45,585 bases of DNA from a virus. The DNA is taken from positions 1 through 45,585 of the IMG/VR virus record IMGVR_UViG_3300037424_001778; one strand, 5' to 3'. Shown one piece after another: positions 8,536-32,965 of this stretch; position 1 is the stretch's first letter, and each line of letters starts with the position of its first letter. Position numbers and translations under genes: made by a program. Below the pieces are notes generated by a model that saw nothing but the letters and a program-made list of their open reading frames with translations, searched no databases and was not told where the DNA came from.

Positions 8536-8856
8536 ATGAGGATACCCACAAACGAAATAGAATTCAAGCGCGCAGTAGGTAAGGTCAAAGGCAAGGTGCT
8601 GTGGCACGTCAAGACACGCGGCGGACTCCACCTCATGGCTTTGGATGGCGGCGAAGTAGTAGGCGCAGCTTCACACCGAGCCGTGGCCAGGCACATAGCC
8701 CAACAGCACGAGCCAGGTCTAGAGTGGACCGAATTGTCCAAGGGGGAGTGGGCGGCTCTTTCGGACTATGAGTTCTGTTTGCCGGAGTACCAAGAGCTAA
8801 CGGATAGAATGAGGACCCTACAAAAGAAGACGCGCTCTGGTGACGCCTGTGACTGA
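8536..8856 (+). CDS. Hypothetical late protein
   Basis: AAGG RBS; contains ELSKGE. Confidence 0.75.
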   Translation: MRIPTNEIEFKRAVGKVKGKVLWHVKTRGGLHLMALDGGEVVGAASHRAVARHIAQQHEPGLEWTELSKGEWAALSDYEFCLPEYQELTDRMRTLQKKTRSGDACD

Positions 8857-9565
8857 CCGCCAAGATGGCGTCATATACGCTCTCACCGACCCACGCTACG
8901 ATAACGTTCGTTATGTGGGTCAGACGATACGGCCAATGAAAACTCGCCTGCGTGAGCATATCAATGCGGCACGCAAGGGCGAGAAAGGCCATAAGGGGAA
9001 CTGGATACGGTCTTTGTTGGAGCTGGGTCTCGCTCCAGGATATAGGATTCTACATTCAGTTGCACGGGAGCGATTGGACGTAATGGAGGAGCTTACGGTC
9101 TCGTACTATAGATTGTATGGCTCGCAGTATCTTTTCGACCTCATCGAGGATTGCCCTTGGCCGGTCCAACCTCCCCTCACCAACGCGGCCGATGGAGGCG
9201 CGCACGGTGTAGGCATAAGCGGGCGTCACCATACACCGGAAGCCAAGGCACTTATCGGAGCGGCCTCAAAAGGAAATAAGTACGCCCAAGGCAAGGGGCG
9301 CGCCAGGTCTAGCCCAAGAACCCCAGAGCACGCTGCCAAGCTGGGTGCGGCGCGGCGAGGCAAGCCCGGTCGTATTTTTGATGTCGAGGCCCGTAGGGCT
9401 CAGTCTAGACTTAGGGGCGGCTCGCCAATAGTAGACCAATTGGGGCATCGCTACGAGACGGTCGCAGAGGCCGCTCTTGCCACCGGCTATAGCGGCGGTG
9501 CGATATCTCGAGTCGTAAGAGGTGAACGAAGGGCTATTGGTGGGCTTGTTTTCTCTAGGGTGTAA
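8840..9565 (+). CDS. GIY-YIG homing endonuclease with NUMOD3/NUMOD1-like tail
   Basis: GVIYALTDPR..RYVGQT..RLREH; HHTPEAKALI; C-terminal HTH. Confidence 0.85.
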   Translation: MTPVTDRQDGVIYALTDPRYDNVRYVGQTIRPMKTRLREHINAARKGEKGHKGNWIRSLLELGLAPGYRILHSVARERLDVMEELTVSYYRLYGSQYLFDLIEDCPWPVQPPLTNAADGGAHGVGISGRHHTPEAKALIGAASKGNKYAQGKGRARSSPRTPEHAAKLGAARRGKPGRIFDVEARRAQSRLRGGSPIVDQLGHRYETVAEAALATGYSGGAISRVVRGERRAIGGLVFSRV

Positions 9566-17480: not shown

Positions 17481-17782
17481 CGTACCCCATCCTTCAATGC
17501 AACGACAAGAGCTTCTTGCGCTAGCTTGAGGAACTTCTCTTCTTGCTTGAACAGGGCAGACCGAACCACCAAGCGAGCCATCTCCTGTAGCTGTCTCTTG
17601 ACCTCTCCGTCTACAATCCTGGCGACTTCTGCCTGGAAGTCGAAGGCTTCGACGGCCCGGTCAACCGCCTCCTTGATGGCCCCCTTCTGCTGGTCGAAAA
17701 ATGTGCCCATGTGGTTGATGATAGTGTGCCGCATGCTGTCGATGGTCAATCGGACTTCTGGGTACATAGCATAGTTATTCAT
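17477..17782 (-). CDS. Hypothetical helical protein
   Basis: ATGA-coupled; GAGG RBS. Confidence 0.7.
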   Translation of the reverse strand: MNNYAMYPEVRLTIDSMRHTIINHMGTFFDQQKGAIKEAVDRAVEAFDFQAEVARIVDGEVKRQLQEMARLVVRSALFKQEEKFLKLAQEALVVALKDGVR

Positions 17783-18669
17783 GGCGTCCTCATTTTGAGC
17801 ATCTTGGCTGTAGCGTTACCGATGGCCTTGCGGTTGGGCTTGGTATTCTCGACTTCACCGGCCCCTTCTCGTAACACGTCCTCCATCATGGCGTCAATGA
17901 CTTCCGGGATGTCCGCGAAGGTCAGTTCTCGACCTACTGTTCCCTTGAGCTTGTCGACTACATGGCTTAGGCGCATCTCGGTCACGAACTCGGCCGCTAC
18001 CGCTTCCGCATTGGCCAGCGCTAGGGCTTTGTCTGGGTTGAGGTTTGTATCTGCCTTGGACTTGCGCTCGCTGAAGTCGCTTCGCTTGTGCTTGGCGATG
18101 ATACGGCTACCGTTGGGGTAATCAAGCTCGATGACGGGTCGAACCACAATCCCTTCGGCCGGCTTTGGGACGTAGTCTGTGACACCGTCCCGCTGGGCGT
18201 TGATGACGCCAATCCGCGACGGGATGTCCCGCTCCGCGTTGAGGGCTTCTGGGGTGCAATCGACCAGGTTAAAGGGCACGAACTCGAGGCCGAGGCTTTC
18301 TGTCAGGCGCTTGGCGTGTTCGACCTGAAGCCATTTATCGTTGATGGCCACGTCGAAAGCGATGAAGCGAGCCTTCGTGCCATAGGTGCCAGACATGCCC
18401 TGCATCTTGCCGCCGTAGGCTTCCCCGTACACTACCACCTTGGTGGGTGGCGTATGGAAAATCTCAGCGAAGCGTCGCCCGAGGTCTGCCTGGTCGAAGA
18501 TGCTGACGAACGTTTCTCGCTTCTCCCCGCCAGAGAAGAAGTGGATGGTGTCGGACTCAAAGCGCAAATGTGCGCTAGTTCCATGCACCTTCTCCAAAGC
18601 ATACACTTGACGAAAAAACCTAAGAATGCTGGGGTCACGACTCAGGTTGTCTATGTGAAGGTATCCCAC
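17779..18669 (-). CDS. RNA ligase, Rnl2 family
   Basis: EKVHGTS (motif I), YGEAYG, AFDV, EGIVVRP, IIAKHK, FVTEMRL. Confidence 0.88.
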   Translation of the reverse strand: MGYLHIDNLSRDPSILRFFRQVYALEKVHGTSAHLRFESDTIHFFSGGEKRETFVSIFDQADLGRRFAEIFHTPPTKVVVYGEAYGGKMQGMSGTYGTKARFIAFDVAINDKWLQVEHAKRLTESLGLEFVPFNLVDCTPEALNAERDIPSRIGVINAQRDGVTDYVPKPAEGIVVRPVIELDYPNGSRIIAKHKRSDFSERKSKADTNLNPDKALALANAEAVAAEFVTEMRLSHVVDKLKGTVGRELTFADIPEVIDAMMEDVLREGAGEVENTKPNRKAIGNATAKMLKMRTP

Positions 18670-19712: not shown

Positions 19713-20279
19713 TCAGTAATTCTCCGCTTCGACTCGGGAACAAAAGAAATGGATTCCGGCCCCGTATTCTACCGTTGTGTCTGGATTGTAAGTCCAGCTC
19801 ATGGCCCGCTTGCCTACAGTGTAGGTGAACTTTAGGTCGTACAGAGACCCGAAAGTAGTCTCTTGGGACCCGGCATCGAGGGGAAACGCTTCGAGAACGA
19901 GGCAGTGGTTCGTTCGACACTTGACGCCCCAGCTCCCACTTCGAGTCCCGAGAATTTGGAGCTTCAGAATGGCCCCTCGGACCTTTTTCCAGCCGATGAA
20001 TTCTTCGGTTGTCGGAAAGGGTCGGTCGATTCGGGTGTCGCCGTAGACCCGGGCGTTGCCGTAGACCCGGGTGTCGCCGTAGACCCGGGCGTTGCCGTAG
20101 ACCCGGGCGTCGCCGTAGACCCGGGTGTCGCCGTAGACGAAACACTTGCCTTTGTGGCTCAGGTTGGCTTCGGATTCAATCCATCCTCCAACCAAACCAT
20201 CGGAAAGACGACGGATGCGACGGAGAGTGATGCCATTGAACTTCTTTGTTTCGCCTATGAATTCGTATTTTGGTGTCAT
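19713..20279 (-). CDS. Hexapeptide-repeat protein with DUF5758-like C-terminus
   Basis: GGWIESEANLS, six VYG[DN][AT]R units, GAGIHFF..EAENY. Confidence 0.8.
   Translation of the reverse strand: MTPKYEFIGETKKFNGITLRRIRRLSDGLVGGWIESEANLSHKGKCFVYGDTRVYGDARVYGNARVYGDTRVYGNARVYGDTRIDRPFPTTEEFIGWKKVRGAILKLQILGTRSGSWGVKCRTNHCLVLEAFPLDAGSQETTFGSLYDLKFTYTVGKRAMSWTYNPDTTVEYGAGIHFFCSRVEAENY
20032..20138. repeat. 18-bp coding tandem repeat, about 6 units
   Basis: cgggYgtYgccgtagacc units. Confidence 0.9.
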
Positions 20280-20358
20280 TTGGTTAGCTCCCTTATCGTC
20301 GACACCCTACCTCGGTTGCCTCTTGCGTGTCAAGCGCCATCGGTATAATCTATGTCAC

Positions 20359-21897
20359 ATGCCATCAACATTCGTCTACTTAGCATTCAGTGCGGACCGT
20401 AGTCCCAAAGAAGTGGAATACGCGTCAGCCGCCGATGATTTTGAGCGTATGGCACGCTTTGCGCAAGTGCAAGAAACGGGCAACGAAGGCTGGAAGAGCT
20501 GGGCTTTGGCCAACAATGGCGAAGTCATCATCATGAATGGCGACGAAGGTCGAATTCGCATCCCAGCGGAAAAGTTGACCGAACTTCCCCACCTCCGCTC
20601 ACAATATGCCGAAACGGTTGGGGCGACGGTTTCGGTCGGTGTGGGGGCCAAGATGTCAGAAGCCGATAAAGCCCTCCAGGCAGCCCAGAAGGCTGGAGGC
20701 GACCGTATCCGTCTCTATGACCAGTCCGTAGAGGAAGACCTCGCTGCGGGCCTCCAGAAGACGCAGGCGGCCTTTCATGACCCGCGCACCGGTAAGGTAT
20801 ACCCCACAGGCTCCATCCATGACCTCGAAGGCCTCCCCGAAGAGCTGCAGCAGGATGCAATCGACGGCAAGGTTTTGTCTGGTTTCGTGGGGGATGACGG
20901 CAAGTTCTTCCAGCGCAAGCCAAAACTTCCCCACCTGGCAAAGGCGGAAGGGCGGGCCTATGCCGAAATCGCGGGAGCCGGAACTGTACCCCCCCAGCGC
21001 CCCACAACGGCCCACCCCCTAGCCCCAGAGCCACCCCAAACGGGCGACCCAGAACCATCTGAGGACGAAGCCTCACCGCAGCTAGACATGGACCAGCTCC
21101 ACGACACCATGACGCAAATGGCCTCCCAGCAGGGCCAACAGGACTCCCAAGACGAGCAAGTCCAACAAGCCGCCGAAGCCAAGGGCCAGGCCCACGGAGA
21201 CCTGACCAAGCGTGTAGCGGCTATTCTACAGGTCTTCAAAGCGCGCGCTTCCGAACTCGAGCAACTCCAGCAAGCGGACCCAGAGCTATACCAATCGTTG
21301 GTAGGCATGCTCCAGGCCATGGTCGAGATGGCCCGAAGCGTTCAAGGAGGAGATAGCAATCCCGGAGAAGATTCAGGAGCTGAGGTCAAGAAGTCTGAGT
21401 CTAGCTGTCCCATGTGCGGAGCTGAACCCGGGACCGACATCGATTGCCCCGAATGTCTCGCTTACGACAAGGTCGAGGTCTCACCAGAAGAATCGTTTAC
21501 AGAAGATAGCGAACTCCACAAGGATTCGATGCCTGGTGGCAAAGGAGACGACGCTCCAGACGAAGAGTTTGCCCAGGATGACCTAGAGCATGGCGTCAAG
21601 GAAGAGCGCAAGGAGCACGGTCTCGATGCAGAACGTGCCAAAGAAATCGTTAAGGACCATTTGACTGAGGACGATGAATATTACGCCAAGGCCGCCCTCG
21701 ACCCAGGCAAGACAGGCCGCCACGAAGTAAATTATCCGGTGGGGTCCACAAAAGAGCCCGGCCCGGGTGGGACGAAAGACGCCGGGAAAATCAAAATTCA
21801 AAAGCCGGATGGTAGTACAACGTGGAGAAGTGTGCGCGCGGGATTAATCATGGATACAGAGGGGCGCCCCATTTCGTCCAGGAGGCAGTCATCGTAA
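20359..21897 (+). CDS. Multidomain late protein: mCpol-like N-terminus, small GKFxxR domain, DUF5661-like domain; probable internal head protein
   Basis: ATG 7 nt after TAATCT; GEVIIMNGDE..TVSVGVG..EADKALQAAQKAGGDRI; GVKEERKEH..IVKDHLTEDDEYY. Confidence 0.75.
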   Translation: MPSTFVYLAFSADRSPKEVEYASAADDFERMARFAQVQETGNEGWKSWALANNGEVIIMNGDEGRIRIPAEKLTELPHLRSQYAETVGATVSVGVGAKMSEADKALQAAQKAGGDRIRLYDQSVEEDLAAGLQKTQAAFHDPRTGKVYPTGSIHDLEGLPEELQQDAIDGKVLSGFVGDDGKFFQRKPKLPHLAKAEGRAYAEIAGAGTVPPQRPTTAHPLAPEPPQTGDPEPSEDEASPQLDMDQLHDTMTQMASQQGQQDSQDEQVQQAAEAKGQAHGDLTKRVAAILQVFKARASELEQLQQADPELYQSLVGMLQAMVEMARSVQGGDSNPGEDSGAEVKKSESSCPMCGAEPGTDIDCPECLAYDKVEVSPEESFTEDSELHKDSMPGGKGDDAPDEEFAQDDLEHGVKEERKEHGLDAERAKEIVKDHLTEDDEYYAKAALDPGKTGRHEVNYPVGSTKEPGPGGTKDAGKIKIQKPDGSTTWRSVRAGLIMDTEGRPISSRRQSS

Positions 21898-21950
21898 GAG
21901 GTGGCGACCGGTAAGCCTACTAACTCTAGAACGATGTAATCTGATTGTAT

Positions 21951-22826
21951 ATGATACAATACGAAGCCGATAGGGATTTCTTCCGGTCGATAGATACGCC
22001 CGAAAAGGCATACACCTTAGGTTTTATGGCCACGGATGGACATGTAGCTGAGAACGGGATGGTATTGAGTCTCCAAAAAGGAGATAGGACCGTTCTAGAG
22101 CGAATTCGTGGCTGGATGCACAGTTCGCATAAAATAACCGAGCGCCCAATGTCCAGGAGTACAGGGACGCAGGCAACTCTTAAGGTTTACGGGTCCGAGA
22201 TAGTCCGAGATTTACGCCTATTGGGGTTTTCCAACAATAAGACATTTACGATTTCTCCTTGGACTGGGCCATCCGAACTGTTACCCCATTATTGGCGCGG
22301 ATGTGTAGATGGTGATGGGTGGGTTATAGATCACGGCTCGAACTTCACTGTTGGTTTTTGTGGCAACATACACATGGTAACCGGTTTCCGGGACTACATT
22401 GAAAATACCACTCAACATCGCGCCAATATTCGATCCCACAAATCCATCTTTAGGGTTGAATATTCGGGCGTTAGACCAGCGCAAAGGGCCATCCGCGCGC
22501 TGAAGTATAGCGACTACCCCGAAATTTGTCTTCCGCGCAAACACACACTGGCGTTAAAAGTCCTAGAGGCCAAGTTTCGACCTAATGGGAGCTCTACAAA
22601 AGGGAAAAAATACGATGAGGCACACAATCTAGCCAATTCGCGCAGACAGGGCGGTACCGCTATACGCGACCAAAACGGTATAGTTTACAGTACAGCAGCT
22701 TCAGCGGCGCGAGCACTTGGAATACAACGGTCGCATGTATCTTCTGTTCTTAGCGGGCGGCGCAAGACTGTCGGTGGGTACTCTTTTGTACGAGTGCAAG
22801 ATGGGTCAATGGGACAAGCCCAGTGA
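21951..22826 (+). CDS. LAGLIDADG homing endonuclease with NUMOD1-like tail
   Basis: AYTLGFMATDG and YWRGCVDGDG. Confidence 0.88.
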   Translation: MIQYEADRDFFRSIDTPEKAYTLGFMATDGHVAENGMVLSLQKGDRTVLERIRGWMHSSHKITERPMSRSTGTQATLKVYGSEIVRDLRLLGFSNNKTFTISPWTGPSELLPHYWRGCVDGDGWVIDHGSNFTVGFCGNIHMVTGFRDYIENTTQHRANIRSHKSIFRVEYSGVRPAQRAIRALKYSDYPEICLPRKHTLALKVLEAKFRPNGSSTKGKKYDEAHNLANSRRQGGTAIRDQNGIVYSTAASAARALGIQRSHVSSVLSGRRKTVGGYSFVRVQDGSMGQAQ

Positions 22827-23644
22827 TTTCGCTGAACGTAGACTTGACGGCTATACTGGACCTCCAGAAGGAGCTAGAGCCCAAAGTCCAGAAAGCCTTC
22901 TTGGATGCAGCTCAGGGCTTGGCCCTGCAGGCCCACGCCCATATCCTCGAAGAAGCTCAGTCCAAACTGCATTCGACCCGAGATAAGTACATATCGGCGC
23001 TGGACTTCAAGCAAGTCTCTCAAGACACTTGGATTATTGCGCTGGACGAGTCCGCCATGTGGGTGGAGGAAGGCCAAAGTGAGCATAGTATGCTAGATTC
23101 GTTGCTGTCTAGCCCTAAGGCGAAGACGGCAAAAGATGGTTCGACCTACATCGTCGTGCCATTCCAACACAACAAAGGACCGTCGAGGCAAACTCCAGCC
23201 CAAAACGACCTCACCTCGACGATAAAGCAAGAAATGCGACAGCGAAAAATCCCATACGGCAAACTAGAAGTTGACGAGCACGGCAAGCCCAAAGTGGGGA
23301 AGCTGCATACATTCGACATTTGGGCGCCGATGAAGACAGCTCAAGGCCCAGGACAGGGCCACGGACCCATCGGGGCCCCCAGGCAAGGACCGACAGGCAT
23401 TCCATTCTTGAACCGGGTCAACGTCTACCAGCGCGAAATAAAGAATGCGGCCGGGAAGTCGTCGGTACGCAAAGACATCATGACGTTTCGCGTGGCCTCT
23501 AGCAAGCACTATGCCGAGGGCCGCTGGTACCATCCTGGGACCCCAGCCAGGAATCTTATGGATACTACTGCTGATTGGGCTTTGAAGGTATGGGAGACAA
23601 AGATTGTGCCAGACCTACTTCGCAGGTTGGACTCCACTCTCTGA
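22823..23644 (+). CDS. Probable neck/tail-completion structural protein
   Basis: Position in late series; TFRVASSK..WYHPG. Confidence 0.55.
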   Translation: MISLNVDLTAILDLQKELEPKVQKAFLDAAQGLALQAHAHILEEAQSKLHSTRDKYISALDFKQVSQDTWIIALDESAMWVEEGQSEHSMLDSLLSSPKAKTAKDGSTYIVVPFQHNKGPSRQTPAQNDLTSTIKQEMRQRKIPYGKLEVDEHGKPKVGKLHTFDIWAPMKTAQGPGQGHGPIGAPRQGPTGIPFLNRVNVYQREIKNAAGKSSVRKDIMTFRVASSKHYAEGRWYHPGTPARNLMDTTADWALKVWETKIVPDLLRRLDSTL

Positions 23645-24625
23645 TATTTGTGGAGGTACGCGGCTAAAGAGACCCCCACGCACCGGCTTACTGAACCCCT
23701 TGCTGATGGTATTTTCTTCGACGTCGTAATGCGCCGCCGCCGCCTTTACAGAAGCAAAGACGGTTCCATCTGGGGCGCGGACCGCCCACTTGTCCTTTAG
23801 TGGCAAATTATTTCTTTTGAATGCGTTGCGGACAGCAGCGGAACTACACCGACAAGACACTGCGAGCGTGGGAATGGTGTCGCCATGAATATACTTCACA
23901 TAAGCTATAAGCGCTTGGCTCCTGTCTAGGATGGAGAGGGCCTCGGAATCTGACCGAGCGCGCAGCCCCGCCCTATCTAATATGCCGTATATCAGAGTGC
24001 GAGAGCAGTGATACCTCTCTCCAACTTCGGGAGCCGACATACCAGACAAGTAATCAAACAGAGCCTGAGACTGTTCCGAAAGGGTGAGGCCGCCCTGGGA
24101 TGAGAACCTATCTTGGCGCGCAATGCCGTGTGATTTCAGGATATAGATAATACTTTGGTGGTACACCTGGAACTTTTCGGCAAGTCGGCGCGTATTGAGC
24201 CTGGGATACAGTGAACAAATTTCCCTCTCCTGCTCTTCCGTAATACCCGTTCGGGCTCGGCGAAGGTTTTGCACTACGGCGGCAGATGCGGCTCCACCCC
24301 GTCCGCCATCAGTCTCGTTGACCAATCTGCATCCTTTTTTACGAAAAAAGTCAATCCAATAGATTTCGCATTCGTCCGCTTGACTCTGGGATGTTAATCC
24401 CGTTTGTAGTGACTGTATTCTTGTTGGAATATGAAGGAGAGCGCATCTGCGAAAAAGACGGGCCCGGTGGGTTTGGTCTCTTGGCCCGGGGCGTCGGTGT
24501 TTATTGAGTCTCTTTCGGAGGTCGCCCCATGTTTGGCCGACATAGCGCAGCTCCTCCTCGACGAAGAGAACGTACACAGTACACGACCTTGCTTTTGGAG
24601 CCAAACCCTCCCCTAGCTCAATCAT
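23615..24625 (-). CDS. GIY-YIG homing endonuclease with multiple HTHs
   Basis: VYVLF..RYVGQT..RLNKH..EIYWI..LVNETDGG. Confidence 0.85.
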   Translation of the reverse strand: MIELGEGLAPKARSCTVYVLFVEEELRYVGQTWGDLRKRLNKHRRPGPRDQTHRARLFRRCALLHIPTRIQSLQTGLTSQSQADECEIYWIDFFRKKGCRLVNETDGGRGGAASAAVVQNLRRARTGITEEQEREICSLYPRLNTRRLAEKFQVYHQSIIYILKSHGIARQDRFSSQGGLTLSEQSQALFDYLSGMSAPEVGERYHCSRTLIYGILDRAGLRARSDSEALSILDRSQALIAYVKYIHGDTIPTLAVSCRCSSAAVRNAFKRNNLPLKDKWAVRAPDGTVFASVKAAAAHYDVEENTISKGFSKPVRGGLFSRVPPQISESGVQPAK

Positions 24626-24851
24626 ATAGGCTAGACTCTAATTCTAGCTGTTGCCTTTCCTGGCACCCTTTGGCCCAAGCTAGAATGGCATCTCCGGTCT
24701 CTTGGATGTCTTGCCTAGCGCTCTGATTCCCGGCCAAATAGTCGGCAATCGCCACTGCATCCAGGCCGAGCTTGTCCCGAAACGAGGCCAGGCTTTCAGG
24801 GCGTTGGGCCAAAAAGGCCAAGACTGACGACTCATAGGCGCTAAGTTTCAT
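24618..24851 (-). CDS. Hypothetical protein
   Basis: AGGAG RBS. Confidence 0.65.
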   Translation of the reverse strand: MKLSAYESSVLAFLAQRPESLASFRDKLGLDAVAIADYLAGNQSARQDIQETGDAILAWAKGCQERQQLELESSLYD

Positions 24852-24861
24852 TGTGCGGCTC

Positions 24862-25152
24862 CTAGAATCCGTAATCGTCCTGCATGTACTCTTTCAGCTC
24901 GCGAGCTTTGGCCTTGTTGGCTGCCACCTTCGTGCCAAAAACCGCCGACGAGTCGAAGGTCTTCGTCCGCCCAGCAGCACCCTTGGTAGGGGAGTAGCCC
25001 ATAGCGAGCGAGTCCTTCTGTGTCAACTCAACTGTACTGGTGCCGTTGTACCGACCCACCAATCGCGCCTTGACTACCCGCAAGCAGCCGGGCGTATGGG
25101 GAGAGTTGCCGGCGTTACCGCGAAGGACGTAAACCGTGTCTCCGAATTTCAT
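24862..25152 (-). CDS. Hypothetical protein
   Basis: ATGA-coupled. Confidence 0.65.
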   Translation of the reverse strand: MKFGDTVYVLRGNAGNSPHTPGCLRVVKARLVGRYNGTSTVELTQKDSLAMGYSPTKGAAGRTKTFDSSAVFGTKVAANKAKARELKEYMQDDYGF

Positions 25153-25349
25153 TTCGTCACCGATTCCCTGCTTTTGGGTGGCAACCCAAGGGCTGCGCGT
25201 GCTCGGTCCAGTGCCACGATGAAGGAGTGCTTATCGAAAGTGCTTAGGCGACCTTTGCGCTCTAACCGCACCTCCATTTCGAACACACAGCAAGCTAGTG
25301 CCTCTTTGAGTACAGCCCTCTTAACGGCTCTTGGTTCATTTTCGTTCAT
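25149..25349 (-). CDS. Hypothetical protein
   Basis: Operon packing. Confidence 0.6.
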   Translation of the reverse strand: MNENEPRAVKRAVLKEALACCVFEMEVRLERKGRLSTFDKHSFIVALDRARAALGLPPKSRESVTK

Positions 25350-25380
25350 GGTGTCGATCTACCAGTCTTCGTCGAAACCG

Positions 25381-25740
25381 TCAAGTAAAGCTTGGAGGAA
25401 TCCCAGGGAGCCGGACCGCTTCCAGCTCGGCTAAAATCCCCGCCATCGTGGGGTCCTTGTCGTCGCCCACAACCACCATCAGCCCTCCCGGTACGATGGC
25501 CAGCTCAATCATATCGTTGGGTTTATCTTCAGCGTCCCAACTTATGACTGATTCGAAGTTCCGATAGACAAAGAGGTCCAGCTTCTGGCCAAAGGCAACC
25601 TCATCAATCCCGCAGATGTAGTCTGTCAAGTCCAGAAAGGCACCCCTAGGCCACCTTCGGATTATCATCCGTGCGGCAAGTTCCATGCCATAGGGGCTAC
25701 CTAGATTCGGTAAGGTTCTTTCCACTCCTGAGATATTCAT
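25381..25740 (-). CDS. Hypothetical protein
   Basis: ATGA-coupled. Confidence 0.65.
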   Translation of the reverse strand: MNISGVERTLPNLGSPYGMELAARMIIRRWPRGAFLDLTDYICGIDEVAFGQKLDLFVYRNFESVISWDAEDKPNDMIELAIVPGGLMVVVGDDKDPTMAGILAELEAVRLPGIPPSFT

Positions 25741-26045
25741 TTAATTCCGAACCTCAAACCTACGGTAGCGATAGCGTCGGCCATATCTTGATGGCTAATA
25801 CGGTCGTGTCGATTCTCTTCGTTGAATTTTTCGGCCTCTTCGATGATAACTGCGATTATCCGGTCTCGGGTCGATATTAGCCACCGAGTTCGTGGATTGT
25901 CAAGTGGTATTTTTCGGGACAACGCGTCTTTAATTAGCTGGCGCTGGTGGGCTCCGAACGCCAACTTGGCCTCTCGGCTTGTCACCAACATGTGTAGGAA
26001 TCGGGCGATGGCTTCGAGTTGTTCGGCGTTGAGTGGGGCGTCCAT
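25737..26045 (-). CDS. Hypothetical protein
   Basis: Leaderless behind extended -10 TGcTACAAT-N6-ATG. Confidence 0.7.
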   Translation of the reverse strand: MDAPLNAEQLEAIARFLHMLVTSREAKLAFGAHQRQLIKDALSRKIPLDNPRTRWLISTRDRIIAVIIEEAEKFNEENRHDRISHQDMADAIATVGLRFGIK

Positions 26046-26063
26046 ATGGGTATTGTAGCACAG

Positions 26064-27029
26064 CTACGCTGACGCGAGCCAGTCAAGGACTCGTTTGATT
26101 GTGGCGGCGGGGTTGCCACCTAAGTGCTTTTCGTACTCGGAGTCTTTGACTCTGAGGAGTTTAATTCCAGCATCGAGACACTGTTGGTTTTTGCGCAAGT
26201 CGCACTCTACGCGTCTGGACTCCGAGTGCCACTTACCGCCATCATATTCTATCGCCTTACGAAGTGACGGTACGTATATATCCAGTTTGAATCGCTTGTT
26301 GTTCAAAAGGCCGTCGCCGTGACCCGCATCTGGATGGAGACCCCGAACCGCTCCTAGGATAGCCAACTCGGCTTTGGAATGCTGGGCGATGTCGGCGCAT
26401 TTCGGACAGCCCCTTGGGTCTAGGGCTTTAGATCTATTGGCAATCGAGGCCGGCCACTCGTGGCCCTTAGCGCATATCCACCATACCTTTTGGGCGGATC
26501 CATACGATACAGTATCTGGCGTAAGGTGTTTATTCTTTGTGGGATGCCATTCTTGGCATAGCTGCGGTCGCACAGCCGATAGTGCGTTTTGGGGCGACAC
26601 ACGACGCCCGCTACAGTACGGACATCCTTGCGCCTACGACACTCGCATGTTGGGGCTCATCGCCCATTCGTGACCTTCTGCGCATACCCACCAAAATTCG
26701 CTTGTGCATCCCTTAGCTATAGTATCAAAGACCCGCGCGTTTTTGGGATGCCATTCGGGGCGTAGTTCTGGGGAACAGGTCGCTAAAGAGTTGTGCCGGC
26801 GCGCCTGGCGGGGGCCACTGTTTCTTTGGGTAGAACATGTCGGACACCCGCTACCGTTCCTGGTCCTATTGTAGGGAGTTGCGGACCATTCGTGCATCTT
26901 CGAACACACCCACCAGCATTCTCGCTCGGACCCACAAGTGACGCCTTCAAATCGGACGTCTCCGTTCTTGGTCGGATGCCATTCGGCCTCCAGGTGCGGT
27001 GCTTTGAGTTTGAGGGAGTTCTGTTTCAT
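26064..27029 (-). pseudogene. Zn-ribbon-repeat (DUF4379-like) plus Vsr/DUF559-like endonuclease with one in-frame TAG at 26634-26636
   Basis: EWHP.KN..WW.C..GHEW..GCP.C repeats; LDIYVPSLRKAIEYDG.KWH; frame continues RVS*AQGCPYCSG. Confidence 0.85.
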
Positions 27030-27064
27030 ATCTCTATTCTACCACACCCCATAATCTTTCCCAT

Positions 27065-28093
27065 ATGGCCCAACCACTCGTCAAACGCCTTGAACTTCCT
27101 TTGCCCGATGCCCTTACCACTAAGGTCTTGGGAATCCATCAGGGAGACCTCATCCTCAAGAGCGCTTTAGATGTTGCTTTTGCAGATTTGCGCGCCAACC
27201 CCAGTCTTTTGAACTTCGTGTGGGCCTCTTTGCCCCAGGATTCCCTGACCTGGAAAGAGTACGGAATGAAGGAACTGAACCAATGCAAGAAATGGTTCAT
27301 GGATACCAACATTCCGGTCAAGATTTCGCCCGTCCGCAATGAGCTTACCGTACCGTGTATCGTAATAACTATGGCTGATTCCGGTGAAGCCACCAATGAA
27401 TCGACCCTAGGCGACATCAACCCAGAAACCGCATTCGAAACCACGCTAGGTGATTGGCCAGCTTTGACTAGGCCCTTCACCCCATCTTCGTACGAGCCAT
27501 TGACTGGTATCGTGCTGATGAAGTCCAGGGATTTGCCGGCCGACATCCTCATCGCAGAAGGCATGTTTATTGTAGACAAGGTCGGCAACCCATACGAAAT
27601 CCTAAAGGTCTACGATGCTACGAGCTTCCAGATTGCCCCAGCTACTGTTGCCGACTTCAAAGGCGCCGTGCTCAAGGGCCACCGCCCATCGTGGGTGACT
27701 TCAATCGAGTCCTCCAGCTTCAAAGAGACTTACCAGGTCAGCGTCAATGTGGGCGGCGAACCGACGCTGACGGTGCTACTGCATTCGGTGGTGGTGTTTT
27801 GTTTATTGCGCTACAAAGAATTTCTCCTTGAGGCGCGGGGGTTTGAGCGGTCCACCTTCACCTCGAGCGACCTCAAAATCAACCAAACCTTCCCAGACAC
27901 CGAAGCCGTGTTCACGCGAAACGTGATGGTTTCTGGGTATGTGCGGATGTACTGGCCCAAAATCATCGCACCTGCCATCGATGGCATTGTGGCTCAAGAG
28001 CGAGTGACCGGTTCCGACCACCTACCTGCAGGTATGAATCCAGACGACCAGCTATGGGTCGGCGAATACGATGGGTTGAGCCAGACCCGATAA
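27065..28093 (+). CDS. Probable tail terminator/neck protein
   Basis: Late promoter; upstream of sheath; PCIVITM..E and ETYQVSV..LLHSVVVF.LLRYK segments. Confidence 0.55.
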   Translation: MAQPLVKRLELPLPDALTTKVLGIHQGDLILKSALDVAFADLRANPSLLNFVWASLPQDSLTWKEYGMKELNQCKKWFMDTNIPVKISPVRNELTVPCIVITMADSGEATNESTLGDINPETAFETTLGDWPALTRPFTPSSYEPLTGIVLMKSRDLPADILIAEGMFIVDKVGNPYEILKVYDATSFQIAPATVADFKGAVLKGHRPSWVTSIESSSFKETYQVSVNVGGEPTLTVLLHSVVVFCLLRYKEFLLEARGFERSTFTSSDLKINQTFPDTEAVFTRNVMVSGYVRMYWPKIIAPAIDGIVAQERVTGSDHLPAGMNPDDQLWVGEYDGLSQTR

Positions 28094-28103
28094 TCTTTGC
28101 GGT

Positions 28104-30374
28104 ATGGCTATTCCTCCGCACCTCCAAAACCATCCAGTTTTTTCTGGCCAGGGCTCATTCGGTATTATGAGCGGGGTGGACGCATACTTCCCAGCGCAGA
28201 CGGAGGCGACCCACGCCAACCTCCTATCGACCGCACAAGGCGCCCTTGCTGCCCTCAGAAGCAGAGCCCAAACCAAGAAGCCAGGTCTCACCAAGGCTGA
28301 ACCAGACATCGTAGCCGACCTAGGCGCCGAACTGGCTGGCCAGGGTGAGCACATCCCGTCTCTGTTGACTCCATTCGGTGCAGCCATGGGGGCCGGCGCA
28401 GCTACCCCATCCGCCTATGACCTTCGGACCAAGCTACCAGAAATACACAAGCTAGTCCAAAGCTACGGCTTCAAGTCCTTCCTGCACGGCGGCAGGTACG
28501 GGTCTCGTGCCCCAGAACACGACTTCCAATCCGGCCTCCTTCCTGTCCATGACCCAGGGGAGACGGACCCCCAGCAATTCAACACGGAAAACGCAAAGCA
28601 GACCCTCATCCAGCTAGCCCGAGCATTGACCAAGCCAGAAATCGACAAACTGTACGGACCGGCGCCGAGTCCGGAATCTGACGTTCATTGGGAAGACCTA
28701 GCTTCCAGGAAGCAGCGCGAGTTGGCTGGGGCTCTCGGTATGCATATTTCCGATGACGCCTTCAACCGTGAGCACAATTGCGCGATGGCGAATGCTGTAC
28801 ACGTAGCAGTCGCCAGCACTCTCCCAAACATGGAGCAAATCGGGTTCGTCCCTCACTCGCATGAAGTTCCTCTATCTATCGCGCTGGACCTAGTACGCGG
28901 TAGTCAGCCTATGGCCAAAGCTGAGCCCAAAGTCAAGATTGCCTGGCGCCACAAAACCACCGGCAGCGTGACCGAAACCGATACAGCCTACCACGACCAC
29001 AAAGAACTACCCGAGCCCAAAGAAAACTACGACGAGGGCTACACGGAAAAGGGCAAGTTCCATACTCGGGAAGAGTACAAAAAGATACACCCCCGCAAGA
29101 TGAGAGTGCACAAGGCAGAAATTCCGGCAGGAACCCACAGTACCGTTGAAGGATTCACGCAAGGACTCAAGGCTCTTCCGAAGGGCTCTCCAGCCAGAGG
29201 CAAGTTCATCACCCAGCACATGAACCATCCCAACTTCATCGCAGCCCTACAAACACACCCGCAAGGCGCGCAAATACACAAAATGCTGACAGCACACCTC
29301 AACAGTCCAGCCAACGCTGGGCCAGGTCGAGGTGTGGTTACCGCAAAATCGGAAAGTGCTGTAATCTTTTCGACATTGCAGGAGAAAAACGTGGCCAATC
29401 CTATCGACCGACAAGCTGCTCTAGACCGTATTAAGAACCTTACGGCACAAATCGAAGACTTGCGCAAAAGGGAAATGGCCAAGGCTCTCATTCCTCCCCA
29501 CAAACACAACGTAGGCACGACCGTCTCGTCCGGCATCGAGGACGTAGCTCCCGCCCACCTCAATCCTCAAGGCAAGAACGACCCTCTCCACGGTGGAACC
29601 GCCGTACGCCCGATGGTCGCCCAAAAGGCCGAGCTTTGCAAGGGCTGTGGCAAGTCTGAATGTGCCTGCATCAAGAAGGACGAACTCGTCGACCCCAAGG
29701 GCAAGCAGTCCTGCAACGGCGTAGTCACCAAGATGCCTGCGACTTCGAAGGAAGTATCTGCCGAAGGTTCAGGCGGGCAAATCAAGAAGGGCAAAACGCT
29801 GTCGGACATTCGCAAGGGCGACCCGCGCCATGCTCCAGGTCCATTCTATCAAGGCAAGCCCTGGCAGGTGAGCGGCGAAGGTAGGAATGCAGAAGAGTCT
29901 TCTGCCAAGCCGGCACCCACCAAGAAGCCACGGGACTTCCCACACAAAGAGACTCCAGTCAAGTCGCCGACCCAGAAGGCAGAGCCGCCTATGGCGAAAC
30001 CCCCGTCTGGCGCAAACATGGGTACCAAGACGCCGGTTTCCAAGCCAGGCAATGCAATGAAGCCTGCTGCTGGCGGCAGCATCCCGAAACCACCTACAGC
30101 CACAAAAATGCCGCCACTCGGCAAGGGCGTGATGTCTGACATCGCCCACCGCGAAAGCCAAGCAATGGGCGCCCCATCGGCAGCTCCAACCCCTAAGGTC
30201 AAGCTCCCAGCCCCACACGAGCAAGAGGACCGTGCCGCAATGTTTGCCGACGCAATGGCCGGAGCCTACAAGCCACCGGCTCCCGTCAAGCCCATCCATC
30301 GGACCACCACAACGGTTTCCGTTCAGCCCCAATCTCGCCCTGGTATTTTTGCCAGACTAAATAATCCCAAGTAA
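28104..30374 (+). CDS. Large K/P-rich multidomain late protein, probable internal head polyprotein
   Basis: About ten hydrophobic-X-K-[ASGD] motifs; internal promoter, RBS and in-frame GTG at 29391. Confidence 0.7.
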   Translation: MAIPPHLQNHPVFSGQGSFGIMSGVDAYFPAQTEATHANLLSTAQGALAALRSRAQTKKPGLTKAEPDIVADLGAELAGQGEHIPSLLTPFGAAMGAGAATPSAYDLRTKLPEIHKLVQSYGFKSFLHGGRYGSRAPEHDFQSGLLPVHDPGETDPQQFNTENAKQTLIQLARALTKPEIDKLYGPAPSPESDVHWEDLASRKQRELAGALGMHISDDAFNREHNCAMANAVHVAVASTLPNMEQIGFVPHSHEVPLSIALDLVRGSQPMAKAEPKVKIAWRHKTTGSVTETDTAYHDHKELPEPKENYDEGYTEKGKFHTREEYKKIHPRKMRVHKAEIPAGTHSTVEGFTQGLKALPKGSPARGKFITQHMNHPNFIAALQTHPQGAQIHKMLTAHLNSPANAGPGRGVVTAKSESAVIFSTLQEKNVANPIDRQAALDRIKNLTAQIEDLRKREMAKALIPPHKHNVGTTVSSGIEDVAPAHLNPQGKNDPLHGGTAVRPMVAQKAELCKGCGKSECACIKKDELVDPKGKQSCNGVVTKMPATSKEVSAEGSGGQIKKGKTLSDIRKGDPRHAPGPFYQGKPWQVSGEGRNAEESSAKPAPTKKPRDFPHKETPVKSPTQKAEPPMAKPPSGANMGTKTPVSKPGNAMKPAAGGSIPKPPTATKMPPLGKGVMSDIAHRESQAMGAPSAAPTPKVKLPAPHEQEDRAAMFADAMAGAYKPPAPVKPIHRTTTTVSVQPQSRPGIFARLNNPK

Positions 30375-30397
30375 TCTGCCTTACCAGGAGAATTCTC

Positions 30398-32965
30398 ATG
30401 GCCAAATCGCTCAGCACTGTTGACGGAACTCTAGTGATTCCGGGAGCTTACGCTAAATACACGGTCCAGTCCAACCCTAGCGGGCTGGCCACGACCGGCG
30501 TGTTGATGCTTGTCGGCGAAGCCAATGGCGGCCCCGACTTCACCCAAGAGGAAGACCTTGAGCAAAACGCCTTCGGTCCAGACCAGCTGGCCGAAGTCCA
30601 GGCCAAGTATCAGGGCGGCCCCCTCGTCGATTCCTTCCGAGCTGCCATCGCTGCAGCCAACGACCCAGACATCACCGGCTCCCTCAGTCGTTGCATTCTG
30701 GTCAAGACCAACATCGGAACGAAAGCTTCTGGCGCGCTTCCGAAGATTGGTGGCGGAACCTACGCCACGTTGTTCGACCGCTCGTACGGCAAGGCTGGCA
30801 ATGGCATTGCGTACCGGACCACTCAAGCACAGGCTGAAGTTCTACCTACGACTGACGTCTTCACTTACATTCCCCCAGTCGGCGCTGTCGACTACCGTAT
30901 TCGCGTCAGCGGTGGCGCTGCAGTTGGTTCGACTGTTTCAGCCGCAATGCTGCCTCCCGCATTCCAAGGCCTCATCGAGGCTCTTCCGGGCGTGACCTGT
31001 TCTGGCGGCGCGACCCGCAACCTACTCCTTGCTCCTATCGGAGCACGTACGGTTGCGATTACCGTGACCCCAGCCCTAAGCAATACCATCGTTGCCACCA
31101 TCGCTGGCGGCGCATGGGACAATACCCCGGCAGTGGGAGACACCCTGGTCCTCCCCTTCGGAGCCATGAACCCCCTCAAGGGCGCAGCCGACGAAAACGT
31201 CGGGGCGTACGTCGTCACAGCGGCCAGCTCTGTTTCTATCACTGCGACCAAGCTCAGCGACGCTACCAAGCCCGCTGGCGTACCCGGAACCATCACAGGC
31301 CCAGCTAACGTTCTGGCCGTCAGCCCCTCCGCAGTGACAGACCTACAGGCCTTCGCTCCCGTCTCGATTTCGCTCGAGTCTGGTGCCGTAATCGATGGCG
31401 TCGGCAAGTCACTCGAGCTTGCAGAACTCACCACTGGCGCTGACCTCCTTTCTCGCACCGCCTTCGTCCTCGGAACCACCACCGCCGTTTCTTGGGTGAG
31501 CAAGGCTTCATCCGCCAAGCTCCTAGTTTCGTCTGCTGAATACAAAGTCACCCTGAGCACCAACCAGTCCTCCACGGCAATTTCTGAGTCCTCCACTGTC
31601 GGCGGCGAAATCGTCCTCAAGATTGGCTACCAAGGCACAACCGCCACGATGACTCTGACGGATGACCTTCTGACGACCGCTGTCACTGGCGGCTCAGGTG
31701 GGAACCTCAGCGTCAACCTCAACGACTTCTCGAATATCCAAGCCGTAGCAGATTTCATCGCTAGCCAGACCGGTTATTCGTGCTCAGTCGGTACCGCAGC
31801 TCTAGGCAACCTTCCCGCGTACGCCCTTGACGACGTCACCACCAAGGACATCTGCGGACAGTTCGGGACACAGCCTGGCCGTCTCAAGGTGGACGCCTAC
31901 CGCTTCTACAATGAAGTCAGCGGCTCCTCGAGCCTCGTTCAAGTCAACGACCCAACCGTAGCAGCACAGAGCGGACTCCCCGATGTAATGGCAGCTCAGG
32001 TTTTCCTGGCTGGCGGGACGTGGGGCGGAACTTCAGACGCAACCATCCAGGCGGCATACGCAGCTCTCGAGCAAGTCCGAGGCAACTTCCTCGTTCCGTT
32101 GTTCTCTCGTGACGCTTCGGAAGACATTCTGGACGGACTTACGGAAGGCGGGGTCCCAACAGCAGTCCCCCCGGTTCCCGCTTCTTCGTACACCATCTCA
32201 GCAATCCACGCAGGAGCCAAGTCACACGTCCTCTCGATGTCAACCCTCAAGCGACGTCGCAATCGTCAAGCGTTCCTTTCGATTGCATCTGACTTCGATA
32301 CCTCGAAGAACGTCTCAGCAAACATCGCCTCGTTCCGAAGTGCAGTTGCTTTCCAGGACTTCAAGCAAATCGGCTCAGACGGTTCCATCCAACAGTTCCT
32401 CCCTTGGATGGGCGCTTCACTTGCTGCAGGCATTCAGGCCGCAGGGTTCTACCGCAACATCGAGCACAAGGGAATCAACACCTCGGGCGTACTGTCCCGC
32501 GCTGGTGACTTCAACCCGAAGAACGACTCACAGGTCGAATCAGCCCTGCAAGCCGGACTTTTGGTCGCTGGTATTCCGATGGACGGAGGCGGGTACATCT
32601 TCCTGAGCGACCAAACATCTTACGGAACGGACTCCAACTTCGTCTTCAACAGCATTCAGGCCGTCTACGCAGCGGATACCGTTTCGCTGACAATGGCCCA
32701 GCGAATGGAACGTGCTTGTGTGGGTCAATCTGTGGCCGACATCAGTGCGGCTGTGGCTCGGTCCTTCGCCGAAAGCGTTTTGGCGGACATGCTTCGCCTC
32801 AAGCTCATCGCCCCGAGTGACGATGGGGCCCCTAAGGGATACAAGAACCTCGTCATAAAAATCAACGGCAATGCTATGCTGGTGTCCTGTGAAATTAAAT
32901 TGGCGACGGCCATCGAATTCGTCCTCATAAATTTCCTTGTGTCGGCGGTTCAGCAGTCAGCCTAA
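30398..32965 (+). CDS. Contractile tail sheath protein
   Basis: IPGAYA..VLMLVGEANGGP N-terminus; LAGGT.G; C-terminal IEFVLINF; precedes tube gene. Confidence 0.9.
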   Translation: MAKSLSTVDGTLVIPGAYAKYTVQSNPSGLATTGVLMLVGEANGGPDFTQEEDLEQNAFGPDQLAEVQAKYQGGPLVDSFRAAIAAANDPDITGSLSRCILVKTNIGTKASGALPKIGGGTYATLFDRSYGKAGNGIAYRTTQAQAEVLPTTDVFTYIPPVGAVDYRIRVSGGAAVGSTVSAAMLPPAFQGLIEALPGVTCSGGATRNLLLAPIGARTVAITVTPALSNTIVATIAGGAWDNTPAVGDTLVLPFGAMNPLKGAADENVGAYVVTAASSVSITATKLSDATKPAGVPGTITGPANVLAVSPSAVTDLQAFAPVSISLESGAVIDGVGKSLELAELTTGADLLSRTAFVLGTTTAVSWVSKASSAKLLVSSAEYKVTLSTNQSSTAISESSTVGGEIVLKIGYQGTTATMTLTDDLLTTAVTGGSGGNLSVNLNDFSNIQAVADFIASQTGYSCSVGTAALGNLPAYALDDVTTKDICGQFGTQPGRLKVDAYRFYNEVSGSSSLVQVNDPTVAAQSGLPDVMAAQVFLAGGTWGGTSDATIQAAYAALEQVRGNFLVPLFSRDASEDILDGLTEGGVPTAVPPVPASSYTISAIHAGAKSHVLSMSTLKRRRNRQAFLSIASDFDTSKNVSANIASFRSAVAFQDFKQIGSDGSIQQFLPWMGASLAAGIQAAGFYRNIEHKGINTSGVLSRAGDFNPKNDSQVESALQAGLLVAGIPMDGGGYIFLSDQTSYGTDSNFVFNSIQAVYAADTVSLTMAQRMERACVGQSVADISAAVARSFAESVLADMLRLKLIAPSDDGAPKGYKNLVIKINGNAMLVSCEIKLATAIEFVLINFLVSAVQQSA

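Follow-up and report, generated by a model that had tools for sequence, protein, structure and literature searches.

The analysis of a 45,585-nucleotide stretch of viral DNA (IMG/VR virus record IMGVR_UViG_3300037424_001778), referred to here as the window and corresponding to bases 1-45585 of a single 164,882-bp phage contig, points to a probable head-processing system in which two late modular proteins, P0001 and P0002 (coordinates in Table 1), share a short lysine-centred motif with the scaffold and the prohead protease of the same phage. In its strict form, hydrophobic-x-K-[A/S]-E, this motif is strongly non-random and is more enriched in P0002 than in any other protein of the genome. Cutting of P0001 and P0002 by a prohead protease after the motif lysine, with the fragments kept in the head, is in our judgement the best explanation of these sequences, and we hold it with somewhat better than even confidence. 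We infer the cutting itself, the enzyme responsible, the bond and the packaging or ejection of the products.

Under this model, P0001 and P0002 would be late "polyvalent" proteins whose modules are joined by hydrophobic-x-Lys-[Ala/Ser], usually followed by Glu, and they would be built into the prohead together with the scaffold and the protease. The prohead protease would then cut after Lys, with a hydrophobic residue at P3 and Ala or Ser at P1', and the resulting fragments, about 6 from P0001 and 8-10 from P0002, would stay in the head and may exit with the DNA.

A preliminary description of the window, made from its letters, had proposed that a Lys-specific prohead protease releases a set of small effector domains. 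The protease half of this proposal gained ground from the presence of the strict motif in the scaffold, in a giant protease-bearing protein and in other head-side proteins, from the positional conservation of the sites and from an assemblin-fold protease encoded in the genome, and the lysine cut itself is favoured by indirect evidence. The notion of small effector domains was weakened, as HExxH is lost from the zincin-like module of P0002, and a metal-binding Asp and a GGDE Gly from the mCpol (minimal CRISPR polymerase) module of P0001. Since these two nominal enzyme modules look inactive, the role of P0001 and P0002 may be less enzymatic than that of internal head or ejection proteins.

The strict motif is concentrated in head-side late proteins

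Two forms of the motif were counted in the 203 predicted proteins of the genome, a loose form ([LIVMFYAT]-x-K-[ASGDT]) and the strict core given above, with expected counts taken from per-protein shuffles that keep composition. All 15 pentapeptides named in the preliminary description sit where it had placed them, and its list omits the loose matches located within folded domains (ADKAL, AQKAG, VFKAR, IVKDH, TEKGK, LPKGS, LCKGC, and IKKGK). Its premise that the loose motif exceeds what composition predicts did not hold up, with 9 matches against 4.55 expected in P0001 (p 0.04), 14 against 9.2 in P0002 (p 0.09) and 421 against 403, which is chance level, over all 203 proteins. The tightened motif, in contrast, departs strongly from chance. 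P0002 carries 6 strict cores where 0.26 are expected (p 4e-7), and KAE alone occurs 5 times in it against 0.45. Similar excesses were found in the 314-residue scaffold (5 versus 0.26), in the 1295-residue giant that bears the protease (4 versus 0.33), in a 1607-residue NUDIX/ParB-like giant (3 versus 0.43) and in a 342-residue neighbour protein (2 versus 0.06). In a GGDEF protein, LAKSE occurs once, separating the N-terminal part from the cyclase domain; at 1 versus 0.16 this does not amount to enrichment.

These observations were further strengthened by comparing blocks of genes. The expected excess in late over early proteins was recovered with the tightened motif, with 24 strict cores in the head-side late block against 4.2 expected, 0 against 1.0 in the tail block from sheath to baseplate, and 3 against 3.1 in the minus-strand block. 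The sheath protein, which served as a negative control, contains neither a strict site nor any K[AS]E. The further copy reported earlier as ELSKGE in 8536-8856 is indeed present, but as a single site in a 106-residue open reading frame (ORF) among the tail-fibre genes it amounts to chance.

The scaffold is a Pro/Ala-rich coiled-coil protein encoded just 5' of the major capsid gene, and 3 of its sites align with those of the Myxococcus phage Mx1 scaffold although the remainder of the protein is poorly conserved. Two IMG/VR relatives have ORFs 5' of the capsid gene that are likewise dense in K-[A/S]-E, with 7 sites in 214 residues and 5 in 264. For the major capsid protein, in which the preliminary description had proposed to look for the motif in the propeptide, the outcome is mixed: its N-arm holds the looser L-x-K-A form (LMK-AMEAG, residues 9-16), and a KAE at residue 125 proved unreliable. 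A copy of this N-arm (ILKAMTAGNMNAAPSTL) recurs in the 1295-residue giant and is conserved in Mx1 and in the related locus L014.

Sites in P0002 are conserved and flank a degenerate, putatively zincin-like module

The homologues of P0002 are 580-1320 residues long, and despite this range the sites line up in the alignment. Of 13 motif lysines, 8 show full conservation, compared with 10 of 42 for the other lysines of the protein (Mann-Whitney p 0.008), and the P0002-family ORFs of 23 related viral loci together hold 53 strict sites against 6.3 expected. Wherever the placement of sites at domain boundaries could be checked, it was borne out: K134 of P0001 follows the mCpol module, K64 and K272 of P0002 flank the folded domain at residues 67-272, and insertions and deletions in homologues start or end at sites.

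The 67-272 segment was modelled with AlphaFold2 (AF2) at a predicted local distance difference test score (pLDDT) of 78, with both ends, which lie beside K64 and K272, below 50. Its top fold matches are all zincin-like but weak (IrrE/PprI at Z 6.0, ArdC at Z 5.5, YbeY, SPRTN, and Wss1; Z 6.4 or less), and a protein atlas search with the same segment returned no usable match. The HWE anchor is present in 29 family members, 27 of which keep HEL[AS]H on the corresponding helix, whereas in P0002 and its nearest relative, P0005, the HExxH position reads IQLAR and the next 12 residues are deleted. The module thus looks, from its sequence, like a pseudo-enzyme kept within a modular protein. P0002 nevertheless keeps 6-7 strict sites although its own HExxH is lost, and these sites are therefore not kept for self-cleavage.

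Modules also come and go at the N-terminus of the protein and between phages. Residues 1-40 of P0002 (28104-28223) are the only remnant of the N-terminal DUF3293/S-adenosylmethionine (SAM)-lyase-like module of its homologues, the rest of which is deleted. The Mx1 protein encoded 5' of its sheath gene (L001:32604-34283) has only two short modules in common with P0002, and in a different order; judged by these alignments, this genomic slot 5' of the sheath is one in which modules are shuffled between phages. The Mx1 protein also holds a run of repeated 'HKM(D/E)xPAxKExANGGP' units. The P0002 family fits, by sequence, the class of polyvalent proteins described for phages and conjugative elements by Iyer, Burroughs, Anand, de Souza, and Aravind in 2017 (PMC5512222).

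P0001 is a second modular chain with an apparently inactive mCpol module

P0001 consists of an mCpol-like module, a small 'AFHDPRTGKVY' module, a conserved helical core, a Cys4 ribbon, a DUF5661-like module, and a conserved C-terminal module. The mCpol module scores 25.7 bits against PF18182, for which the cut-off is 26.4, and aligns over profile positions 4-113 of 114; the precomputed Pfam table of the sequence collection assigns PF18182 to P0001, and the family is present in more than 60 of its 67 homologues. Its motifs read S-A-D in place of the family's D-G-D and N-G-D-E in place of G-G-D-E. P0001 thus has replacements at the first metal-binding Asp and at the leading Gly of GGDE, which 41 and 47 of about 63 relatives keep, respectively, while the second Asp and the D-E pair are retained, and the module looks inactive on these residues. 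The DUF5661-like module (PF18905; residues 418-444) reaches E 0.031 and 15 bits against a cut-off of 27, several homologues of P0001 carry PF18905, and the module is probably a divergent member of that family.

Within the clade of P0001, modules have been gained or lost between sites. The preliminary description had also seen a small domain common to P0001 and P0002. The two proteins give a pairwise E of only 1.7, and the relationship is visible solely through the P0002 homologues P0010 and P0012, in which the small module of P0001 recurs. This recurrent 'AFH/KxxxTG' module and the helical core of P0001 are no more than candidates for a means of entering the prohead.

In the mCpol homologues of other phage clades (P0026-P0087), a K-[T/S/P]-E-[A/G] linker lies about 20 residues after the mCpol module in nearly all proteins, and in this linker Glu is more constant than Lys. 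Proteases specific for Glu may use it as their cut signal in these clades.

An assemblin-fold protease forms the front of a giant head-side protein

The first 170 residues of the 1295-residue giant yielded an AF2 model with a pLDDT of 92.5, whose best fold matches (VIA-align) are the varicella-zoster protease (Z 9.7) and T4 gp21 (Z 9.6; root-mean-square deviation 2.5 over 117 residues), followed by the human cytomegalovirus and Kaposi's sarcoma-associated herpesvirus proteases, with unrelated folds at Z 4.9 or below. All 19 sequences compared have His40 and Ser120, and tblastn found 30% identity to the SPO1 gp3.2 head maturation protease (E 2e-6) as well as matches in other Herelleviridae. Searches against Pfam and PDB sequences gave no match, and Foldseek against the PDB returned weak assemblin matches only. 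On the strength of the model, the genome is seen to encode a prohead protease of the assemblin fold.

Among 50%-identity representatives, the search yielded 769 relatives of this protease domain (E 0.001 or better), in which it is mostly N-terminal within proteins of 500-1950 residues. In the C-terminal parts of 130 representative protease-fused proteins, we counted 156 strict motifs against 18.8 expected, with KSE at 3.5x and KAE at 2.5x, while reversed-order motif controls in the same proteins were unenriched (~1).

The favoured bond and the rival explanations

A cut after Lys with Ser or Ala at P1' is the favoured reading of the sequences, because the lysine is conserved, an insertion junction falls between Lys and Ala, and the SPO1 scaffold, a shortened Staphylococcus capsid chain and HK97 all agree with it. 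At the aligned sites of the P0002 family, Lys and the small residue after it are retained, but W, L, D or P can stand in for Glu, and one site has R for K. Among the 130 protease-fused proteins, the pattern without Lys is depleted (0.57x), and that without Glu stands at 1.78x. The small module present in P0010 and P0012 but not in P0009 is inserted between ...PMTK and ANPPSD..., a position fixed to within one residue. A hydrophobic P3 and a small P1' are also typical of assemblin-fold proteases in general (V/L-x-A|S and L/I-x-E|, with a bar at the cut). In the SPO1 scaffold, hydrophobic-x-K-S occurs 12 times against 1.1 expected (0 of 2000 shuffles), the next residue being L, I, F, Q, V or E, and the start of the SPO1 capsid protein, ...ALNK-ALEAG, is homologous to the LMK-AMEAG of this phage. 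The capsid protein of a related Staphylococcus phage was deposited at its full 463 residues in PDB 5lii, with V-V-K24-S25 at the homologous site, and as a 439-residue chain, 24 residues shorter, in PDB 9row and other newer entries; from the length difference and the alignment offset, we infer that the shorter chain, whose first two residues are unseen, starts at Ser25, after Lys24. The HK97 capsid protein is cut at K103/S104 (PMC10275583).

A cut of the same sites after Glu, with K at P3, A/S at P2 and E at P1, was the initial reading and was dropped on the aligned loss of Glu, the depletion of Lys-less patterns, the SPO1 sites and the Staphylococcus chain; we now consider it unlikely. It would bring this phage into line with T4 gp21, which cuts L/I-x-E, and phiKZ gp175, which cuts S/A/G-x-E, and it draws on K-[A/S]-E being the enriched tripeptide both here and in the protease-fused proteins, on the distant mCpol linkers that keep Glu more than Lys, and on T4 gp21 being among the best fold matches of the protease. 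The alignments speak the other way, as sites often lose Glu while keeping Lys and the small residue, and so do the SPO1 scaffold, in which L, I, F, Q or V comes after K-S, the homologous site in the capsid N-arm, where +2 is not Glu, and the Staphylococcus chain that appears to begin right after Lys. Rather unlikely, in our view, is that the motif is a joint that is never cleaved, serving as a flexible hinge or as a docking peptide for scaffold or capsid, so that the chains stay intact like the unprocessed N4 virion RNA polymerase. Cleavage of P0001 and P0002 is, after all, deduced from sequence, the capsid N-arm copy in the protease giant suggests docking by mimicry, and Iyer et al. note that some polyvalent proteins are transferred uncut (PMC5512222); yet the motif is densest in the scaffold, which belongs to a class of proteins degraded by prohead proteases, and the Staphylococcus capsid protein was deposited without its first 24 residues at the homologous site. 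A five-residue signal with a hydrophobic residue two positions before its centre also fits the pattern of the assemblin family.

We regard it as very unlikely that a protease other than that of the prohead does the cutting, whether the zincin-like module of the P0002 family by self-processing, as Iyer et al. proposed for such modules (PMC5512222), or a host enzyme. The retention of HEL[AS]H in most anchor-bearing members would suit self-processing, but P0002 and its nearest relative have lost HExxH and retained the sites, and the scaffold, the protease giant, the NUDIX giant and P0001 have the motif without a zincin module. Hardly credible is the view that the motif is a functionless by-product of K/A/E-rich helical or low-complexity sequence: the loose regular expression does sit at chance, and A, E and K abound in scaffold-like proteins, but the composition-keeping shuffles leave P0002 and the scaffold far above expectation, reversed-order controls are unenriched, site positions are conserved and the head-side block as a whole stands out.

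Several observations nevertheless weigh against cutting of P0001 and P0002 after Lys by the prohead protease. The enrichment of the strict core in P0001 is modest (2 versus 0.2; p 0.018), and the loose expression is not enriched, so that the single non-strict sites LHKDS, IRKGD, MAKAL and LGKGV may be false. A Lys cut does not explain why this clade so strongly prefers Glu at +2, and the Glu-constant linker after mCpol in distant proteins leaves room for a post-Glu cut as in T4 and phiKZ. The P0001 and P0002 genes lie closer to the tail genes than to the head genes, and no capsid-targeting signal turned up for either protein, although no test aimed at one was made. The capsid KAE at residue 125 was rejected as a propeptide site; it occurs in the related locus L013 and not in Mx1, and the N-terminal 120 residues are well conserved. 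The literature on Mx1, SPO1 and phi812 yielded no proteomics or cut sites, nor did we find any for this phage.

Genomic setting and shared late-gene signal

Mx1 is the only close named relative of this phage, and the gene order from the head genes to the sheath is the same in both. Mx1 is in culture and has homologues of P0001 and P0002 (WNM70340.1 and WNM70344.1). The phage collection was searched with the region (Megablast) and with P0002 (tblastn), and no direct match was found. P0002 ends 24 nucleotides before the start of the sheath gene, which follows directly downstream, and in most of the 23 related loci a P0002-family ORF likewise lies directly or closely 5' of the sheath gene. The interval between P0001 and P0002 is occupied by homing endonuclease genes and small genes of no assigned function. 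Three homing-endonuclease genes are scattered through the late operon, and elsewhere in the genome an HNH/DUF4379 gene occupies the place of the Mx1 portal gene.

The hexamer TAATCT precedes P0001 and P0002 and is also found before the sheath, tail-fibre, baseplate and several head-side genes, lying 8-34 nucleotides (often 13) 5' of late structural gene starts. Of its 47 genomic copies, 16 are 6-45 nucleotides 5' of a same-strand start, where about 1 is estimated by chance. It probably serves as a promoter or leader signal of late genes, and its presence before both genes supports, at the level of sequence, their co-expression with the structural genes; it does not imply a location in the virion.

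Table 1. Features of the window and of the related giant protein; sites are written with a slash after the motif lysine, and strict sites have the form hydrophobic-x-K-[A/S]-E
Feature	Position	Strand	Description
P0001	20359..21897	+	512 aa (amino acids); stop-free translation; Pfam, 67 homologues, clade alignment
mCpol-like palm module	20386..20715	+	P0001 aa 10-119; PF18182
LQK/TQ, K134	20752..20766	+	Directly after mCpol module; non-strict; L-x-K-[T/N/A] kept in Mx1-like clade
LAK/AE, K195	20935..20949	+	Strict; end of small module; QK/AE in 3/4 clade members shown besides Mx1
VKK/SE, K345	21385..21399	+	Strict; after helical core; VQKSE at same column in Mx1 and P0027
LHK/DS, K388	21514..21528	+	Weak candidate before DUF5661-like module; Lys in 3/5 homologues, alignment ambiguous
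YAK/AA, K444	21682..21696	+	Candidate before C-terminal module; Lys in 6/6 sequences; insertions of P0023 and P0025 end here
P0002	28104..30374	+	756 aa; stop-free translation; homologues and alignment
Degenerate zincin-like metallopeptidase module	28302..28919	+	P0002 aa 67-272; AF2 model and fold matches
LTK/AE, K64	28287..28301	+	Strict; aligned MAKAE, LKKSE; IQKSF, LYKAD nearby in distant homologues
MAK/AE, K272	28911..28925	+	Strict; Lys and small residue in all aligned homologues but P0013 (gap); Glu replaced in MLKAW, VAKSL
VHK/AE, K337	29106..29120	+	Strict; same column IQKSD, VTRAP (K to R, Glu lost)
TAK/SE, K415	29340..29354	+	Strict; K415 and E417 invariant in 9 sequences
MAK/AL, K460	29475..29489	+	Candidate in well-conserved stretch; K460 and neighbours equally invariant, which leaves conservation uninformative on whether it is a site
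AQK/AE, K508	29619..29633	+	Strict; before Cys cluster; homologues MTKAL, MAKAL
IKK/DE, K525	29670..29684	+	Candidate; same column GMGKAE, GMDKAE, VAKAD
IRK/GD, K571	within P0002	+	Non-strict; listed in the preliminary description
TQK/AE, K625	29970..29984	+	Strict; homologues KKAEPP, VAKAEPP
LGK/GV, K674	30117..30131	+	Candidate before conserved C-terminal tail; L-x-K-[G/A] in all homologues with the region
Tail sheath gene	30398..32965	+	phrog_279; 44% identity to Mx1 sheath
TAATCT, probable late-gene signal	20346..20351	+	13 nucleotides 5' of P0001 start
TAATCT, probable late-gene signal	28091..28096	+	13 nucleotides 5' of P0002 start
TAATCT, further window copies	27052-27057, 30372-30377		Plus 12 more places in the genome
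Homing endonuclease, GIY-YIG/NUMOD	8840-9565	+	
Homing endonuclease, HNH-like	21945-22826	+	
Homing endonuclease, GIY-YIG/helix-turn-helix (HTH)	23615-24625	-	
RNA ligase gene and DUF5758/YdcK beta-solenoid gene	17779-18669 and 19713-20279	-	Just 5' of P0001
1295-aa giant	L002:9652-13539 (genome 129152-133039)		Head protease, capsid N-arm copy, conserved middle domains and PI3/4-kinase-like end

Implications and comparison with known systems

Should the cuts prove real, the mature head protein content of a large phage group, to which the old laboratory phage Mx1 belongs, could be predicted from one short motif, and the same motif would explain the free swapping of modules. A hydrophobic-x-Lys/Ala-Ser rule would, if true, improve the annotation of hundreds of giant "hypothetical" phage proteins and point to proteins that enter the cell ahead of any phage gene expression. 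In its broadest form, the idea is that in at least 769 clusters (at 50% identity) of mostly uncultured phages, a Lys-specific protease of the assemblin type is fused to the front of a cargo chain and paired with a five-residue "joint code", such that any module placed between joints is packaged and freed, a route by which kinases, peptidases and the nucleotide-signal enzymes mCpol, GGDEF and NUDIX would enter the host with the DNA and weaken its signalling-based immunity; we put this forward as a tentative and rather doubtful extension. The pay-off is smaller for P0001 and P0002 because two of their enzyme-like modules appear inactive.

What emerges beyond the head processing of T4 and phiKZ, the lysine cuts of HK97 and Herelleviridae, and the polyvalent proteins is a variant that would combine them. 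To these the present analysis adds two sheath-proximal proteins, an apparently dead zincin module, the case for Lys from SPO1 and the PDB, and family-wide statistics.

The systems of T4 (gp21 with IPI-III and Alt), phiKZ (gp175) and SPN3US (gp245) share with this phage a protease of the assemblin fold, as the match to T4 gp21 illustrates, and the use of one short motif across scaffold, protease and extra head proteins. According to passages in two papers on SPN3US, its processed products are thought to remain in the head and then to be ejected (PMC7411985, PMC10052503). In the present phage, by contrast, Lys rather than Glu is the core residue, as read from sequence alone; the predicted substrates are long chains of many modules instead of single proteins with a propeptide, and the protease is the first module of a 1295-residue chain. 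HK97 (gp4) and Herelleviridae, the latter represented by SPO1 gp3.2 and by the Staphylococcus capsid in 5lii versus 9row, resemble it in the order hydrophobic-x-Lys followed by Ser or Ala, and the resemblance to Herelleviridae extends to the protease, 30% identical to that of SPO1, and to the homologous site in the capsid N-arm; the Herelleviridae cut comes from the length of a deposited chain and not from a paper. Processing of multi-enzyme cargo chains is not known in those phages, and Glu at +2 is a preference specific to the clade described here.

The likeness to polyvalent proteins lies in the joining of at least two unrelated modules in one late-gene polypeptide, as in both P0001 and P0002, in a zincin-like peptidase as hub, in GGDEF, ParB and NUDIX partners elsewhere in this genome, and in predicted delivery with the DNA. 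Iyer et al. predicted self-processing by the zincin module and found assemblin-like peptidases at C-termini only (PMC5512222), whereas the assemblin domain considered here is N-terminal in most of the 769 clusters, a defined linker motif is present, and the zincin module of P0002, as opposed to the HExxH-bearing modules of that study, is inactive by sequence. Similarly, the N-terminal module of P0001 resembles mCpol (PF18182) over the whole profile, yet it belongs to a late phage protein with a linker that looks like a cut site and not to a stand-alone defence gene.

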